Source: a virus (taxonomy: Duplodnaviria; Caudoviricetes). From it: DNA of 64,000 nucleotides. This document shows, piece by piece, positions 44,426-53,822 of the stretch. Within the stretch, counting starts at the first letter, position 1, and the number at the start of each line of letters is the position of its first letter. The DNA is taken from the IMG/VR virus record IMGVR_UViG_3300024259_001623, one strand, 5' to 3'. The notes beneath the pieces are model-generated. The model saw only the letters and a list, made by a program, of their open reading frames with translations, did not search any database and was not told the origin of the DNA. Position numbers and translations under genes: made by a program.

Positions 44426-46096
44426 CTATATTTTACCGAGAATAAAATCGCTAACCATTTGAGGCGTTGCAGTATCGAAACCTACAACGTTCAACGAGTT
44501 ACGATCTTCGTTGTCAGTGATGCTATAAGGATTAGCTAACATACCACAAGCAATCATCTTAGCATCGTTTCTTCTTTTCTTACTGTCCCGATACAACTTC
44601 AAAGACCGATCTACATGAGTCTCGCCAGCCCAAGTCTCCATATCAGAGAGAATAACAAAAGCATCAACATCTACATTCTTACTCTTTGCCCAATTGGTAG
44701 CGATAGCTGCATCGGTGCCACCAAAGTTGCTCATCTGGGCCTTCTTCATTGCAGTCTGAATCGAATCCTTGGCAGTAATCTTCAAGTCTACCAAATTATG
44801 AGCGAAGCCCATGATATGATAGTTAGGTTCGGTTCTGGCAAAGACCATAGCCATTGCAGCAGCAGCAACGCAAGGACTCATATTACGGATACCAGATACT
44901 TCACCGCCAGCCATAGAACCAGAAACATCAACCGCCAAAAGGATATTCTTACCAGTTGGCTCAACATTCTTGAAGGACAGATAAAAAGCATCGTCCAACG
45001 CATCAAGAATCTGAGGAACTGGCTCATAACCTAACGAAGTAGGATAACCCCAATACGAATGGGTAAACTGATTGCTATAGGCACACATCGCTGCTAATAC
45101 GCTCAAAGGATGAATTCTGGCCTTATGCAACACTTCCTCATTTCTCAAAGTCTCACAAACATACTTTGTAGACGAGGATAGCGGAGTCAAAACGCCTGCC
45201 TTTGTCATATTACGGATATTACGAATCATAGCAGTCATTGGCATACCATCCAGCAATGCCTTCCATACCTTCTTATCATAAAGAGTATTAGGTACGCTCT
45301 CACGAACCAAACCATACTTCTTAATCATAGAAACCATTTCCTTGCTATCATCTACAGTCTTAGCAGTCTCATGTGCCCAGATATATCTAGTGGCATCATT
45401 CTTCTCCAACTTCGCAAACTGGACCTTGGTGAATCCCTTTCTTCCCTTAACGATATACTTCAAAACGGTTTGCATATCCTTACTACCGGGGATCAAGTGG
45501 ATTTTACGCAGCAAATCTCTATGCGACCAAGACGCTTCGCCTTCTACCTTACGCTGAGGATACTTACAAGCCTGGAATGCTACGGAATTAGGAGTCTTAC
45601 TGGTATACCAACTACCAATAGCCTTACGCAAACCTCTACCCCATCCTCTCATTTGGTCTACATAAGTCACGAAACTGAACAAATATGTTCCGATACGACA
45701 GACCTTGTTTAAGTTATCCAAAGCGTACTTACGAATCTCGTCATTATCGCAAGAAGCTGCTAAAGCCATAACAAAGATAGCAGGATCATTCTTGGCTGCA
45801 CGACCTTCATTAGAAACTGCGATAGTTTCGTCAATAGCAGCCATTCCGCCTTCGGTAGTCTTAAACAGCTTAGTTACATTCTTGGCGTTTTCCTTAGCGA
45901 ACTTTTTCTTACCAACATAAAAAGTTCCGCCATCAGAACCAAGAATTAAGAACCTACGAAGATGCTCTAACCGATCAACAGAATAAACATACCCACCGGC
46001 GTTATTCTTGACTTGACGCTTGTTCGCTCTCTGAGTCTGAGGAACGTCTACGTTACGTGAAGCTAAACCACTATCCTTAACAATATTCTTAGCCAT
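44426..46096 (-). CDS. rsr: Ro60/Rsr TROVE-domain RNA-binding protein
   Basis: NNAGGYV, RRFLILGSDGGTFY, MPMTAMIRN, RIHP, vWA MIDAS LAVDVSGSM, GGTD, DAFVILSDMETW, VVGFD. Confidence 0.96.
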   Translation of the reverse strand: MAKNIVKDSGLASRNVDVPQTQRANKRQVKNNAGGYVYSVDRLEHLRRFLILGSDGGTFYVGKKKFAKENAKNVTKLFKTTEGGMAAIDETIAVSNEGRAAKNDPAIFVMALAASCDNDEIRKYALDNLNKVCRIGTYLFSFVTYVDQMRGWGRGLRKAIGSWYTSKTPNSVAFQACKYPQRKVEGEASWSHRDLLRKIHLIPGSKDMQTVLKYIVKGRKGFTKVQFAKLEKNDATRYIWAHETAKTVDDSKEMVSMIKKYGLVRESVPNTLYDKKVWKALLDGMPMTAMIRNIRNMTKAGVLTPLSSSTKYVCETLRNEEVLHKARIHPLSVLAAMCAYSNQFTHSYWGYPTSLGYEPVPQILDALDDAFYLSFKNVEPTGKNILLAVDVSGSMAGGEVSGIRNMSPCVAAAAMAMVFARTEPNYHIMGFAHNLVDLKITAKDSIQTAMKKAQMSNFGGTDAAIATNWAKSKNVDVDAFVILSDMETWAGETHVDRSLKLYRDSKKRRNDAKMIACGMLANPYSITDNEDRNSLNVVGFDTATPQMVSDFILGKI

Positions 46097-48204: not shown

Positions 48205-48651
48205 TTATTTAAACTCTTTGGGAATATATTCTAATTTTAGCATTATTGCAACTGTATAACCACCCAAATGTCTCCATACAACATCTAGATAATCTTTAAA
48301 AGTTGGATAAAGATTTTCTTTTGGTGCTATTTTCTTATCTGTGCCTTCATCCGATATCTTCCCCCCGAATTGCAGAGCTACTTCATTAATGATAGAATGA
48401 TCTACCCACCAAATAAAATTCCCGCCGCCACCATGTCTCATTTCAAAATGTTTTTCGCCTTCTAGCCAGCAAATTCTACTCTCATTAATTTGTGGACATT
48501 TAATAGTCCAGACATGATCTGCAAAACCATCTTCTGAGTATTCTACCGTGAGAGTATTTTTAAACTTATCTTTAATAAGCCTATTAATTAGTTCAGTAAT
48601 TTGTTCTGGATCAATTTTCTTACGAGTTTTCACCCAAGCATGATTAGCCAT
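48205..48651 (-). CDS. hypothetical protein
   Basis: Coupled (TAATG) to the ligase C-fragment. Confidence 0.6.
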   Translation of the reverse strand: MANHAWVKTRKKIDPEQITELINRLIKDKFKNTLTVEYSEDGFADHVWTIKCPQINESRICWLEGEKHFEMRHGGGGNFIWWVDHSIINEVALQFGGKISDEGTDKKIAPKENLYPTFKDYLDVVWRHLGGYTVAIMLKLEYIPKEFK

Positions 48652-49262
48652 TATTCTTCTATCCCATTTTTTATAATCTTTTCATATCGCCAATGACAAC
48701 TTGTTTGTACATGATTGGCTCTTACATATTTTGCTAATGATCTCTGGAAGTCTCCATACGAAAAACTATCAACCAGTCTAACAACATATCCTTCACATTC
48801 ATCATTGTTATGTTCTTTTTCAAATAACTCTTTTATCTTGTCAACGTCCCAGATGCCTCTATACAGTTCAGGGACAACTGATACCCCTAAAACATCTGCC
48901 CATTCTACCATATCATCCCAACTCAAACATTCATTCTTATCATTCCATATACTAAACAGATAAAAATACGATTTTAGATTTTTATAGTGAATAGAATGTT
49001 TGGCAAATAGGTTCTCTCCACAGAATCTCCAACCATCTGGAATCTCATAAGATATTTTAGAATGAAGATTCTTTACCCAACCTCTGGATGGATGAGAAGC
49101 TCCGAAAATAGATCGAGCGTGTAAATAGTCTTTATACATAGAACAATTATGTACTAATATTCCATTGGCAAAAAAATTATTATTACCACTGACGGATATA
49201 TCATATAATTTTGATTTATTAGATATTTTCTTTATTTTTTTGATTTTTACTTTTTTCAACAT
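48651..49262 (-). CDS. split-intein C-half (39 aa) plus the C-terminal part of an RNA ligase
   Basis: LYDISVSGNNNFFANGILVHN|C intein block F/G end, then ligase motifs CGEN, FSIW, EGYVVR and KYVR. Confidence 0.92.
   Translation of the reverse strand: MLKKVKIKKIKKISNKSKLYDISVSGNNNFFANGILVHNCSMYKDYLHARSIFGASHPSRGWVKNLHSKISYEIPDGWRFCGENLFAKHSIHYKNLKSYFYLFSIWNDKNECLSWDDMVEWADVLGVSVVPELYRGIWDVDKIKELFEKEHNNDECEGYVVRLVDSFSYGDFQRSLAKYVRANHVQTSCHWRYEKIIKNGIEE
49146..49262 (-). mobile_element. IntC of a naturally split intein
   Basis: Ends in HN with Cys+1; 9 Lys versus 1 Asp. Confidence 0.9.
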
Positions 49263-50271
49263 TTTTTAACCTATCTAATAATAATTCCATTAACTCACAA
49301 TCATCAATGGCTTTCATCTCTTTTTCCCATATATAAATAACAAAATAATTATATTTTTCTGCTATTGCATTTTTTAGAGAATCTTTTTTCCAAACCTCTC
49401 CTGCTTTTATGATACCATTAGGAAACTTTAAAATATCATCTTTTTTATAAATTTCAGGATTAGCGTGCCAATAGTCACCATTAATTTCTAAAATTATTCT
49501 TGTTTTATTTATTTTGAAATCGAAACTTTTTCTATTTATCCAAAATTGTCTAGTAAAACCGATATTAAGTTCTTCTAAAACATTAGAAATTCTTGTTTCA
49601 AGCTTACTAGAGAAATTATGAACAAAGTTTTTACATCTTTTCTGTATTATAATATTCTTTTGCTCATCTGATAAGTTTTTCCAATATTTTTTATATCCAT
49701 CGTGTAACTTATCCATCCTAATCTTTTTATCTTCTGGCGAAATTATTTGCCAGTGATCATTCATTTTTCCATATCTATTAGGAAGCGATTTTTTACCGTA
49801 ATTCTCTAACATATAGTCATGCAACCATGAATAATATTCTTCAGACTTCCATATATTATCTACTCCATAATTTTTCAAAAAAGTTTGTTTCTTTTTATCT
49901 TGTATATCTTTTGATTTAGAAACATTATCAACACCATATTTCTTTTCGCATGTATTCTTATATTTTTGTCTAGTCCTTATCGTAGACGTTGCCTCTCTTT
50001 TGGTCCTTTTATCAATGCCGAAATATTTTAATAAAAATTGACTTTGTACAAAATTAAGTCCATATTCTTGTAAAAAATCTGTTAAACTCCAAAACTCATT
50101 AATGTATTTATTTTTAAAATCTTCTTTATCAAATATATTTTTCTTATCAAAACATATTTGTTTAAATCTTAATTCCTGTTTATCTAAATTGATATTGTTT
50201 TTTTTAGCACAAAAATAAATATGACGAGAATTTCTTTTGTTAATTTGTTCTTTACATATAAAGCATTCCAT
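49219..50271 (-). mobile_element. Vsr/DUF559-like (EDxHD-type) homing endonuclease
   Basis: YGVDN repeats, S.LE, FDF, LEINGDYWH and WE motifs; sits between the intein halves. Confidence 0.85.
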
Positions 50272-50328
50272 AGAGTTATCTCCTTTTTATTACTATTCAA
50301 CAATAAAAATGGAGATTCCTCTATTTTA

Positions 50329-51147
50329 TTAGTCGTTTATAAGAAATTCATCATTTTCTGATAAATCTTTGACGCATCTATAACAATTTAAATTAGGCAA
50401 CCAAACTCTATGTTCTCCCGTTATTTTTATCATTCTGCCATCTTCTAACTCAATTTCATACCATTCTTTTTTACTATTCTCATTGATAGAGAATCCATCA
50501 ATTTTTTTGTATTCAATCTGACCAGTTTCAGCATCCATAGATAAAACTTTACAATCTATTTTTTGCTCACAAACGTCTTGTATGCTCTTTATTCCCAAAT
50601 CCGTATTTAACTCAGTTTCTTGGTCAAGACAGTTCTCACCGTCCATTTTAACGGTCACAACGACCTCTCTACCTTCAAAGTGTTCTGTAGACTTTAATTG
50701 TCGATCATCATTAGTTAATCCAGGACTCCAAGGCAAATGTAAAGTTCTAGGATACTTAATATATTTAGAAAATAAATATAATACTTTCCCTTGCTTTAAA
50801 ATCTTTTGTACTGAATGATCAAAGAATAATTCTCCTTTTAATCTTTCTCCGCTTGGCAACATAATATTTCCCCACTTATCATATTCATATTCGTCATATA
50901 AATGAGAAGGAATAATTACGTTTTCGATGCCAGCAGCCATTCTTAAATCTTCACAAGAAAGATGAGTTTGTTCAGCCGCAATATGATGATATCCGCACAA
51001 AGAGACACCGTTATCTAAATGATAACCGCCATCATCCCATAAACGTCTTTCTATGATATGATGAGCATCTTGCGCATCTTTTCCGCATATAACGCATTTG
51101 TGGTTATCTCTTTCAAAAACAGATTGTCTAAATTCATCTCTAGTCAT
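50329..51147 (-). CDS. HNH domain plus RNA ligase N-part plus split-intein N-half (100 aa)
   Basis: FERDNHKCVICG..DAHHI HNH domain; KYPRTLHLPWS and KMDGEN motif I; then CLDQET...TGEHRVW intein blocks A/B. Confidence 0.92.
   Translation of the reverse strand: MTRDEFRQSVFERDNHKCVICGKDAQDAHHIIERRLWDDGGYHLDNGVSLCGYHHIAAEQTHLSCEDLRMAAGIENVIIPSHLYDEYEYDKWGNIMLPSGERLKGELFFDHSVQKILKQGKVLYLFSKYIKYPRTLHLPWSPGLTNDDRQLKSTEHFEGREVVVTVKMDGENCLDQETELNTDLGIKSIQDVCEQKIDCKVLSMDAETGQIEYKKIDGFSINENSKKEWYEIELEDGRMIKITGEHRVWLPNLNCYRCVKDLSENDEFLIND
50332..50631 (-). mobile_element. IntN of a naturally split intein
   Basis: Begins with Cys1; TxxH block B; 23 acidic versus 12 basic residues. Confidence 0.9.
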
Positions 51148-51152
51148 TTTAA

Positions 51153-51560
51153 TTATGTTTGTAATGCTTCGTTAAAATCTTTCTTTTTAATAAATATTTT
51201 AGTAAATACGGCATCGTAACTTTTGCCTGCTGCTAAAAAGTCTTTTTTGTAAACTACTACAGGGACAACCACTTCCCAGGTATGGGCAAATTTTATAGCA
51301 CTAGGCTTATTAGTAAAGACATGCAGACCATGATGGATTTCGTGACTAGCCTTTTCAAACTTAGTTAATGTTTTACTCTCCCGATCAGAAATATTCCAAC
51401 CAGAATCATAATGTGTCTCCCGCCAAGGAGCTATTAAAACCCATTTGCCATCGATGATTGTTTTCTTATATAGAACTTTCCACATAATACATTTGCCACC
51501 ATGTTCTTTTAAAGTTCTTAAAACTCTTTTGGTTCTTTTATCATAAATTTTGCAACACAT
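51153..51560 (-). CDS. MCL...GIHV paralog family member 10
   Basis: MCCKIYDKRTKRV, HGLHVFT, AVFTKI. Confidence 0.8.
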   Translation of the reverse strand: MCCKIYDKRTKRVLRTLKEHGGKCIMWKVLYKKTIIDGKWVLIAPWRETHYDSGWNISDRESKTLTKFEKASHEIHHGLHVFTNKPSAIKFAHTWEVVVPVVVYKKDFLAAGKSYDAVFTKIFIKKKDFNEALQT

Positions 51561-51571
51561 AATTTATTCCT

Positions 51572-51994
51572 TTATCTCCCTGATCTCATGTTTCTATCAT
51601 CGCTACGAATATCATCTTCGGTTGATGGTTGTCCATCTGCTCCATAAGATATAATCAACGGTGCATTATTCTTGGAATATCTAAAATTATTTCCAAAAGA
51701 ATCTATGAAACGTTCATCTTCTATAGTTCCCTCATTGTCAGCAGTTCCCTGCATTAACGATGCTATTTCAGGAATAGTTAATACATCTTTTAAATATCTA
51801 GGATATTCTTGATGATATCTATGATAGGTTAGAACAGCCTTACTCAAAACTTTCAGTCTAGCACTTGTCTCATCTTCTTGCGCTCTTACTTGAACATAAC
51901 TTCCTACACTTACAATCAAAGAAATCAATATACCCATAATACTAATAACAACCAACATCTCTATAATAGTAAAGCCTTTTCGTTTCTTACTCAT
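51572..51994 (-). CDS. type IV pilin / GspG-like pseudopilin
   Basis: KRKG|FTIIEMLVVISIMGIL class III signal peptide; D.FGN.F.Y and ISYGADG C-terminal motifs. Confidence 0.88.
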   Translation of the reverse strand: MSKKRKGFTIIEMLVVISIMGILISLIVSVGSYVQVRAQEDETSARLKVLSKAVLTYHRYHQEYPRYLKDVLTIPEIASLMQGTADNEGTIEDERFIDSFGNNFRYSKNNAPLIISYGADGQPSTEDDIRSDDRNMRSGR

Positions 51995-52256: not shown

Positions 52257-52694
52257 TTATAATGTTTCCAATTCTTCGATGGCCTTATAATAATCAGCTT
52301 TTTTAAGAAAAACCTTCATAAACACAGCATCATACCAATCTCCAGCATACATAAAATCTTTTTGATGTACTGTGACAGGGACTACTAAACAATCACCTTC
52401 ATTGTTGAATTCATCCTTCTTAACCCACAATGCTTGTTTTTTATTAGTAAAGACATGAATGCCCTCTTCTACCGTATTACCGTAAAGTTCGTAATCATCT
52501 AATTTTTTGCTGTATCTATTAGACCTAATGCAACCATATTTGTATTCATAGTCCATATATGGAGTGATCAACTTTACACCTTCATATCCATGATCTTCTA
52601 CAAACAAAACTTTCCACATGACGCATTTTCCGCCATTCTTTTTGAAAGTTCTTCTTACCCTTCTGGTTCTTAAATCATCGATTTCTAAACACAC
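52257..52694 (-). CDS. MCL...GIHV paralog family member 11
   Basis: GTG start (M)CLEIDD, EGIHVFT, VPVTVHQKDF. Confidence 0.75.
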   Translation of the reverse strand: MCLEIDDLRTRRVRRTFKKNGGKCVMWKVLFVEDHGYEGVKLITPYMDYEYKYGCIRSNRYSKKLDDYELYGNTVEEGIHVFTNKKQALWVKKDEFNNEGDCLVVPVTVHQKDFMYAGDWYDAVFMKVFLKKADYYKAIEELETL

Positions 52695-52899
52695 TATTTC
52701 TTCTCCATAAATAAATCTTCTAACTCTGCTCCTTCTATCCATCGAGCATATTGATCTTCTGTTATACCTAAAAAATCTATCAGAGAAATATCTTCTTCTG
52801 AATTATGCCATGTTTCAATAAAATCATCTATTTGGTCTGATGTGACTTTACCTTGTCGGAATTGTTCAGCAAATGTTTCTTTATTCATCGTTTTCTTTC

Positions 52900-53117: not shown

Positions 53118-53558
53118 TTAAGCTGGCATCGTAGCCGCATAATAATCTTCCTTTTGTAAAAAGACTTTAGTAAAAACAACATCTCCTAAATTACCAGCAG
53201 CAATAAAATCATTTTTACTTACTGTTACTGGTATCACAATAAGACTTACTTCATCATGATTTTCATTATCATAATATTTTTTCCGAAGACGAAGATACCT
53301 TTTTGCTTGTCTCTTACTATAGAAGACATGAATACCATAATTGACTTCTTCCCACCTTATCTCAATATCAGTCAATTTGTTACTTGTTCTATTTGAATAA
53401 ATCCAGCCTGACTTATATCTAAAACCATACGAAGCAAAATACATAGGAAGTAATTGATTATTACGTAGATTAACAACCTTGTACATAACAAGACTGCCCT
53501 TCTTCTCAAGCTTTTTTCTTATCTTTTCAGTTCTTGCGTCATCGATTTCTAAACACAT
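53118..53558 (-). CDS. MCL...GIHV paralog family member 12
   Basis: MCLEIDD, YGIHVF, IPVTVSKNDFIAAG. Confidence 0.8.
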   Translation of the reverse strand: MCLEIDDARTEKIRKKLEKKGSLVMYKVVNLRNNQLLPMYFASYGFRYKSGWIYSNRTSNKLTDIEIRWEEVNYGIHVFYSKRQAKRYLRLRKKYYDNENHDEVSLIVIPVTVSKNDFIAAGNLGDVVFTKVFLQKEDYYAATMPA

Positions 53559-53583: not shown

Positions 53584-53658
53584 TACTCCGGACGGGACTT
53601 GAACCCGCAAACTCCGGGATGAAAACCCAGCGACTTTATCCAATTTGTCTACCAGAGC
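53584..53658 (-). tRNA. tRNA-Glu(UUC)
   Basis: Loop TT TTC AT. Confidence 0.93.
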
Positions 53659-53666
53659 GAATATAA

Positions 53667-53740
53667 TACTCTGAACGGGATTCGAACCCGTGATCTTTAG
53701 ATTGAGAGTCTAACGAATTAAACCGCTATTCTACCAGAGC
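53667..53740 (-). tRNA. tRNA-Glu(CUC)
   Basis: Loop CT CTC AA. Confidence 0.93.
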
Positions 53741-53748
53741 GTATATAA

Positions 53749-53822
53749 AACTCTGGACGGGATTCGAACCCGCGATCTTTAGGATGAAAACCTAACGAAT
53801 TAAACCGCTATTCTACCAGAGC
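53749..53822 (-). tRNA. tRNA-Glu(UUC)
   Basis: Loop TT TTC AT; 5' half identical to the CUC copy. Confidence 0.92.

Follow-up and report, generated by a model that had tools for sequence, protein, structure and literature searches.

A gene for an ATP-dependent RNA ligase in the viral record IMGVR_UViG_3300024259_001623 (IMG/VR; Duplodnaviria, Caudoviricetes) has very probably been fractured by a naturally split intein, in such a way that protein trans-splicing would restore the ligase from the products of two separate genes. The DNA analysed here consists of the minus-strand genes at positions 48651-51147 of a stretch of 64,000 nucleotides (nt) of this record, to which we refer as the window. 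Three consecutive open reading frames (ORFs) are located there on the minus strand: 50329..51147 (272 amino acids, aa), 49219..50271 (350 aa) and 48651..49262 (203 aa). The first specifies an HNH domain, the N-terminal part of the ligase with its motif I and the N-terminal fragment of the intein (IntN); the third, the C-terminal fragment of the intein (IntC) and the rest of the ligase; and the one in the middle, a free-standing putative homing endonuclease. The three-part arrangement is far beyond chance, and its observation in a first-pass annotation of the sequence is confirmed: the coordinates and residue numbers given there (ORFs, IntN, IntC, the Cys after IntC, the 336-aa product and its junction) were all reproduced by script, and the reading of the locus as a fractured gene is supported by the intein motifs, the exact insertion site, the predicted binding of the two fragments, the Vsr fold modelled for the endonuclease and the reappearance of the same gene order in relatives, as detailed below.

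The locus is matched with 0 differences by contigs of four independent seawater runs, and its DNA is present in many seawater metagenomes. An identical N half is recorded on a contig of 434,625 base pairs. The window, in which 13 tRNA genes occur, all on the minus strand, looks like giant phage DNA; the genome is that of a marine phage of ~435 kb.

The divided RNA ligase, its split intein and the insertion site

Profile matches and the modelled fold of a homologue identify the host protein as an ATP-dependent RNA ligase (PF09414), Rnl2/Rnl5-like and fused to an HNH domain. Residues 1-175 of the N half correspond to positions 4-179 of phrog_24030 (RNA ligase; 342 positions) with an expectation value (E) of 2.8e-73, and residues 38-201 of the C half to positions 175-340 (E 4.2e-60). 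The two ranges abut exactly on the profile, which indicates that one RNA ligase is cut in two. Pfam RNA_ligase PF09414 recognises the C half with an E of 5.4e-26 (92.2 bits; cut-off 27). The N-half gene (50329..51147; 272 aa plus the stop codon; this and all other features of the locus are on the minus strand) matches the HNH phrogs in addition to phrog_24030, as well as Pfam Intein_splicing at residues 185-267. Its HNH nuclease domain covers approximately residues 1-62 (50962..51147), as delimited by the HNH phrogs and Pfam HNH_2 (residues 4-60), and its N-extein (residues 1-172; 50632..51147) ends at motif I, KMDGEN, in which K167 is the adenylated lysine. The other ligase motifs, CGEN (III), EGYVVR (IV) and AKYVR (V), are located in the C half, within the C-extein (48651..49145; 164 aa plus the stop codon), which opens with the +1 Cys (Cys40 of the C half). 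With motif I encoded by one gene and motifs III-V by the other, ligase activity would need the splicing of both halves.

The columns of the ligase motifs are invariant in an alignment of 39 intein-less homologues. Likewise, in 35 relatives that span the whole N half at 48-64% identity, the motif I residues K167, D169, G170 and E171 and the HNH residues C18, C21, H29, H30, N46, C51 and H55 do not vary. The fold of the ligase was judged on a 66%-identical intein-less homologue (P0067), not on the spliced product. The AlphaFold model of P0067 (predicted local distance difference test, pLDDT, 90.9; predicted template modelling score, pTM, 0.85) retrieved RNA ligases in 35 of the 36 fold matches at E ≤ 1e-3, including Naegleria NgrRnl, T. 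brucei REL1, T4 Rnl2, archaeal Rnl3, Rnl1 and Trl1; the single odd match, 3QWU, was deposited as a putative DNA ligase. A search of the sequences of solved structures with the C-extein returned nothing meaningful.

By their sequence motifs, IntN (residues 173-272 of the N half; 100 aa; 50332..50631) and IntC (residues 1-39 of the C half; 39 aa; 49146..49262) are assigned to a class-1 naturally split intein, two pieces in separate ORFs that would make up one domain of HINT fold. Of the Pfam Intein_splicing profile, the N half matches positions 7-91 and the C half positions 121-155. IntN begins with CLDQET, its first residue, Cys1 (C173), being directly adjacent to KMDGEN, and features block B as TGEH (T243-G-E-H246); a script gave it a net charge of −11. 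IntC is basic (net charge +8) and ends with ILVHN. Amongst the solved structures, IntN is matched best by the N-inteins of Npu and Ssp DnaE (E 2.3e-5), whose TxxH motif aligns with TGEH, and IntC by the gp41-1 intein (E 3.6e-5). The predicted spliced product comprises 336 aa, with the junction KMDGEN|CSMY and the splice-junction peptide …VKMDGENCSMYK….

The residues expected to carry out the splicing reaction are conserved amongst the relatives. Cys1 is invariant in the 35 sequences mentioned above, although their IntN pieces are just 32-49% identical, and Thr and His of block B are conserved in at least 90% of the relatives' IntN (33-35 sequences). The C halves of 33 relatives contain an IntC of 35-39 aa with a net charge between +1 and +8, which ends with LVHN (in one instance, KHN) and is followed by Cys in 30 cases and by Ser in three.

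IntN and IntC are predicted to bind each other. Structure prediction of the complex, with short extein flanks on either fragment, yielded a score of 0.74, a mark that 51 of 78 solved complexes and two of 108 mismatched pairs reach; the best control scored 0.00. At least 90% of the contacts agreed between prediction runs, and the pLDDT of the partners was at least 68. The tightest contacts were predicted between residues 230-235 of IntN (…YEIELE…) and residues 5-13 of IntC (…VKIKKIKK…), that is, between two long strands of opposite charge.

The position of the intein is defined by alleles that do not carry it. Hundreds of contiguous homologues of ~340 aa read through the junction as KMDGEN-T(T/S)MY…HARS, and KMDGEN is followed by Thr in 57 of 71 contiguous IMG/VR loci, by Cys in six, by Ser in six and by another residue in two. 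The +1 residue is mostly Thr in such empty alleles and always Cys or Ser in the occupied ones, a switch that the requirements of splicing predict. P0009, the nearest of the alleles without the intein, has 88% identity, and its sole difference at the junction is a Thr in place of Cys. Moreover, a contig from run X12 fits the N-extein down to position 50633 and then continues as KMDGEN-TNIYHDVIH; it represents an allele free of the intein, which departs from the window sequence precisely where the intein is inserted. Intein-bearing and intein-less alleles, therefore, coexist in seawater. The homologues in phages from GenBank (SCTP-2 gp101, RsoM2USA, CcrBL9, CcrSC, ME3 and others) stop matching at residue 172-174, which identifies them as intein-less, and among 50,697 GenBank phage records, no HNH-ligase match reaches into IntN. 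Read joints located inside the endonuclease gene were disregarded: their short sides measured 21-37 letters, and they probably derive from contigs of other organisms or from repeats. In one IMG/VR relative (L035:4178-5011), the HNH-ligase occurs in separate short ORFs without an intein, probably a decayed gene.

The endonuclease gene between the halves

The gene in the middle (49219..50271; 350 aa) is free-standing. Its product matches Pfam DUF7487 (E 4e-13), DUF559 weakly, and phrog_3339, named "homing endonuclease" (E 4.9e-14). It is laid out with an N-terminal CCHC finger, DUF7487 repeats and a C-terminal Vsr-like/EDxHD catalytic domain. We found 496 homologues, several of which have been named Vsr endonucleases by the Joint Genome Institute (JGI). 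D251, E262, G265, W268, H269, K300 and E316 are invariant in 42 of the homologues, amongst which D297 is at least 90% conserved and the N-terminal C-C-H-C set nearly invariant; these residues were mapped onto Vsr by the order of motifs and not by superposition at the residue level. A sequence search of solved structures with the endonuclease gave no match. The AlphaFold 2 (AF2) model (pLDDT 90.6) had as its four top Foldseek hits chains A and B of 3R3P, the catalytic domain of I-Bth0305I, and 1CW0 and 1VSR, both Vsr (E 4e-4 to 1e-3; probability 1.00; for I-Bth0305I, TMt 0.74). The model and the conserved residues, thus, point to a homing endonuclease of Vsr-like/EDxHD fold, in line with the EDxHD/Vsr-type call made earlier for this gene: the fold matches both I-Bth0305I and Vsr, and the catalytic residues are conserved. 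Site-specific cleavage is putative. A hidden Markov model scan of the window returned just one such endonuclease and one IntN.

The order of N half, DUF7487 gene and C half recurs on other metagenome contigs, of 212 kb (L002), 197 kb (L003), 107 kb (L005) and 258 kb (L006); in L005, the +1 residue is Ser. Two of these loci contain an extra ORF after the IntN half, ahead of the endonuclease gene (L002:5853-6359, 168 aa, and L006:4852-5535, 227 aa), without a significant Pfam match in either case.

A gap of 57 nt separates the stop codon of the N half from the start of the endonuclease gene. The transcript is predicted to fold there into a hairpin (50270..50324) of −21.6 kcal/mol (z −4.9), and none of 200 shuffled sequences folds as well. 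The 3′ arm of the hairpin spans the ribosome-binding site AAGGAG and the A and U of the AUG; weaker hairpins extend across the endonuclease start in L003 and L002. At its other end, the endonuclease gene overlaps the start of the C half by 44 nt (49219..49262), and the corresponding overlaps measure 50, 14 and 20 nt in L002, L003 and L005. An upstream hairpin and a 3′ overlap of the endonuclease gene are both features given for fractured genes (PMC2677866). A sigma-70 scan at the locus gave matches no more frequent than in shuffled sequence and no terminator was found there, while by reading, the endonuclease leader contained no exact T4-type late promoter (TATAAATA).

Proposed mechanism and alternative explanations

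As a fractured gene, the locus would have originated from an HNH-RNA ligase gene into which a class-1 intein inserted itself immediately behind motif I, turning KMDGEN|T into KMDGEN|C, and the intein would have been split at the usual site by the free-standing Vsr-like (EDxHD, DUF7487) endonuclease gene. The N half and the C half would be translated separately, the latter from a start within the 3′ end of the endonuclease gene. IntN and IntC would then associate via their oppositely charged long strands into a HINT domain, in which Cys1, Thr and His of block B, the terminal His-Asn and Cys+1 would perform trans-splicing, and the spliced ligase of 336 aa would differ from its ancestor by a single Thr-to-Cys change. 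The endonuclease, the ribosome-binding site of which is enclosed in the hairpin, would cut the intein-less alleles of co-infecting relatives, into which the whole cassette would be copied.

A number of observations weigh against this explanation. Each intein piece scores just below the Pfam gathering cut-off (30 and 34 bits vs 35.8), as expected for a partial domain. The score of the predicted complex may owe something to solved split inteins that the model had memorised. The locus was found in no RNA run, splicing being deduced from sequence, and the four seawater runs provided no read joint giving a precise cassette-free form of the same phage. Furthermore, Gln replaces the block B His in three of 35 IntN relatives (P0017, P0019 and P0038), which read T-E-N-Q, T-E-D-Q and T-P-E-Q; these may have an altered splicing chemistry or be inactive copies, and, because of them, not every member of the family need splice alike.

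The intein could also splice while the endonuclease has decayed, been domesticated or been silenced, so that the cassette is inherited just vertically. We consider this unlikely, albeit not negligibly so: a strong hairpin locks the ribosome-binding site and the start codon, and the cassette-free form of the same phage is absent from the examined contigs, but for active fracturing endonucleases, hairpins of this type are described to have a regulatory role (PMC2677866). The endonuclease ORF, moreover, is intact over its 350 aa and modelled with a pLDDT of 90.6; in the 42 homologues, D251, E262, H269, K300 and E316 never vary and D297 is kept in at least 90% of the sequences; and both types of allele coexist in seawater. 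There is very little probability that the two halves function as a non-covalent heterodimer, joined by the intein pieces without any splicing. Tight binding of IntN to IntC is predicted, as a heterodimer would need, and fractured genes without inteins have been reported, e.g., the SbcD-like locus of Dassa et al. 2009 (PMC2677866). Against it stands the retention of Cys1, TxxH, HN and Cys or Ser at +1, although other intein positions have diverged to 32-49% identity, together with the predominance of Thr at +1 in empty alleles as opposed to Cys or Ser in all occupied ones; a HINT domain of 139 aa beside the adenylated lysine would, in addition, probably block the active site.

The intein-less ligase in pieces at L035 might suggest that the window, too, contains a dead ligase broken by a mobile element, or else an assembly artefact, from which no functional product arises. 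However, both halves are full open frames in which all ligase motifs are present, many independent assemblies show the same layout, at 48-64% identity, and independent runs give the sequence with 0 differences, so that this explanation is already largely refuted and is the one to which we attach the least probability. Rather improbable, too, is an extension of the fractured gene model in which the split, beyond being tolerated as a parasite, acts as a gate on RNA repair. One large clade of split inteins would then reside preferentially at motif I of the polynucleotide ligases of phages (HNH-Rnl in the window; ligases of the PHA02142, Rnl1 and NAD-dependent types elsewhere); that this clade exists is supported by the profile searches described below. 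One may speculate that trans-splicing, for which two cysteines and both halves are needed, sets when, or in which redox or stress state, the ligase is activated, and that the unspliced N half would meanwhile already act as an HNH nuclease.

The wider intein clade, known systems and genomic neighbourhood

With a profile made from 33 IntN sequences, 6,431 cluster representatives were retrieved at E ≤ 1e-3 and 1,069 at E ≤ 1e-10. The best matches beyond the query family are IntN pieces located C-terminally on short proteins, and the exteins of those outside the family end with …EK(x)DG|C, …EKIHG|C or …KTDE(E)R|C. Scanning the 143 best profile matches for domains yielded the PHA02142 OB domain in 57, RNA_lig_T4_1 (Rnl1) in 16 and the adenylation domain of NAD-dependent DNA ligase in two. 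We take the PHA02142 proteins to be putative RNA ligases, as which they are presumably annotated; among these 143 matches, most are in N halves of RNA ligases. With the nearest IntN relatives positioned at ligase motif I, that motif is an insertion hot spot of the clade; the element in the window would be one branch of a large clade of ligase-motif-I split inteins, as judged from the profile matches.

Related inteins interrupt other ligases as well. In L088, an NAD-dependent DNA ligase is fractured by a related intein and a DUF7487 gene, in the order N half, DUF7487 gene and C half, the last with the DNA-ligase adenylation and OB domains. On another contig (L089), a PHA02142-type N half occurs near a Ro60 gene. 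At L090:1523-4117, a PHA02142-ligase, two IS605 OrfB/TnpB genes follow the IntN half in place of the Vsr-like endonuclease. In L021 (379 kb), a ligase of the same HNH-RNA ligase family as that in the window is a single ORF of 711 aa (L021:3983-6118) with a contiguous intein and a LAGLIDADG_2 endonuclease domain in frame; the intein lies one residue further upstream (KMDGE|C…VHN|CTTMY) and may represent a shifted allele or an independent invasion. A tblastn search of GenBank phages with IntN alone gave just two weak matches, both in other genes: Salicola phage SCTP-2 gene 204 (L086:1903-3873; a hypothetical protein of 656 aa) and an unannotated stretch of Streptococcus phage vB_SagM-GXN1 (L087:3001-3276). 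At 36-37% identity, these are probably other, unannotated inteins.

Fractured genes of this kind have been known since 2009, when Dassa, London, Stoddard, Schueler-Furman and Pietrokovski described them for gp41 (loci gp41-1 to gp41-8), IMPDH, DnaE, NrdA, NrdJ, DNA ligase, terminase and one unknown host, and first described the family of Vsr-like endonucleases occurring in them (PMC2677866). The locus in the window shares with theirs the two adjacent host ORFs on the same strand, the intein broken at the usual endonuclease site, the Vsr-like gene in between with a hairpin before it and a 3′ overlap with the C half, the acidic IntN and basic IntC, and the phage origin. It differs in its host, an HNH-fused ATP-dependent RNA ligase, which is outside their eight host types; amongst their loci, the only "DNA ligase" probably comes closest.

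With gp41-1 and the Npu and Ssp DnaE inteins (6QAZ, 6RIZ, 4LX3, 4KL5 and 1ZD7), the intein has in common the residues of class-1 chemistry (Cys1, TxxH, HN and Cys+1), the split site into ~100 aa and ~36-39 aa, and the complementary charges. Counted on alignments, IntC is about half identical to the IntC of gp41-1, and IntN about one third identical to DnaE. IntN, however, matches the gp41-1 IntN with an E of just 0.16-0.36 and belongs to a separate sequence family. Cross-reaction with gp41-1 is possible, given that about half of the IntC residues are identical, and the orthogonality of the pair proposed in the first-pass annotation is putative.

The endonuclease resembles I-Bth0305I (3R3P) and Vsr (1CW0 and 1VSR) in its C-terminal catalytic fold, its conserved Asp, Glu, Trp-His and Asp, and its two-part build with an N-terminal DNA-binding region. 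The identity is ~20%, I-Bth0305I resides in a group I intron of recA rather than in a split intein, and the N-terminal part of the endonuclease in the window consists of the CCHC finger and the DUF7487 repeats. Fusions of HNH to the Rnl2 family have been described in jumbo phages (Iyer et al. 2021; PMC7824862); intein-less examples are Salicola SCTP-2 gp101 and those of Ralstonia RsoM2USA, Caulobacter CcrBL9 and CcrSC, and Acinetobacter ME3. The ligase in the window is of the same family and domain order, 46-60% identical over the N-extein, and like them is placed near an RNA-repair gene (Ro60, at a distance of 2.5 kb). Inteins in an RNA ligase have been recorded in surveys for RtcB (Novikova 2016, PMC4760082; for actinophages, bioRxiv 10.1101/2025.01.02.630785), but RtcB is unrelated in fold and chemistry, and its inteins are contiguous.

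Our literature searches brought up no paper describing an intein within an Rnl-type (ATP-dependent) RNA ligase; the intein databases (InBase and Pietrokovski's) were not covered by this search, and the element may have been catalogued before. The earlier claim that the split-intein pair is new holds insofar as there is no paper that we could find on this host, and does not hold for the element itself, which is common in metagenomes. In the literature searched, neither this host enzyme nor the clade at ligase motif I seems to have been described. They add the ATP-dependent RNA ligases of giant phages as a new class of host for fractured genes, with the active-site motif KxDG of polynucleotide ligases as a recurrent target of inteins. 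For protein engineering, the locus and its relatives offer dozens of natural, diverged Cys1/Cys+1 (in some cases, Ser+1) split-intein pairs, which are compact (100 + 35-39 aa) and related to both DnaE and gp41-1. As regards phage biology, an enzyme of RNA repair encoded near Ro60 and tRNA genes would depend on ligation at the protein level.

The Ro60 gene at 44426-46096 (minus strand) is intact, with matches to TROVE (E 1.4e-34) and vWA_Ro60 (E 6.4e-47). It is separated from the ligase by a non-coding island that holds a tRNA-Lys gene. The two genes may form an RNA-repair neighbourhood, since the PHA02142-type split ligase in L089 is also found near Ro60.

On the other side, just upstream of the ligase, are three paralogous genes (51153-51560, 52257-52742 and 53118-53558; minus strand) for proteins of 135-161 aa, which are 36-45% identical, share 38 invariant positions (…GIHVF…VPV…DF…AG…D.VF.K.F…) and have no match in Pfam or PHROG. 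A phage-encoded pseudopilin is specified at 51572-51994 (minus strand; N_methyl, E 2.2e-8; T2SSG, E 8e-7). Further upstream, at 53584-53822 (minus strand), three tRNA-Glu genes (UUC, CUC and UUC) occur in tandem, 8 nt apart.

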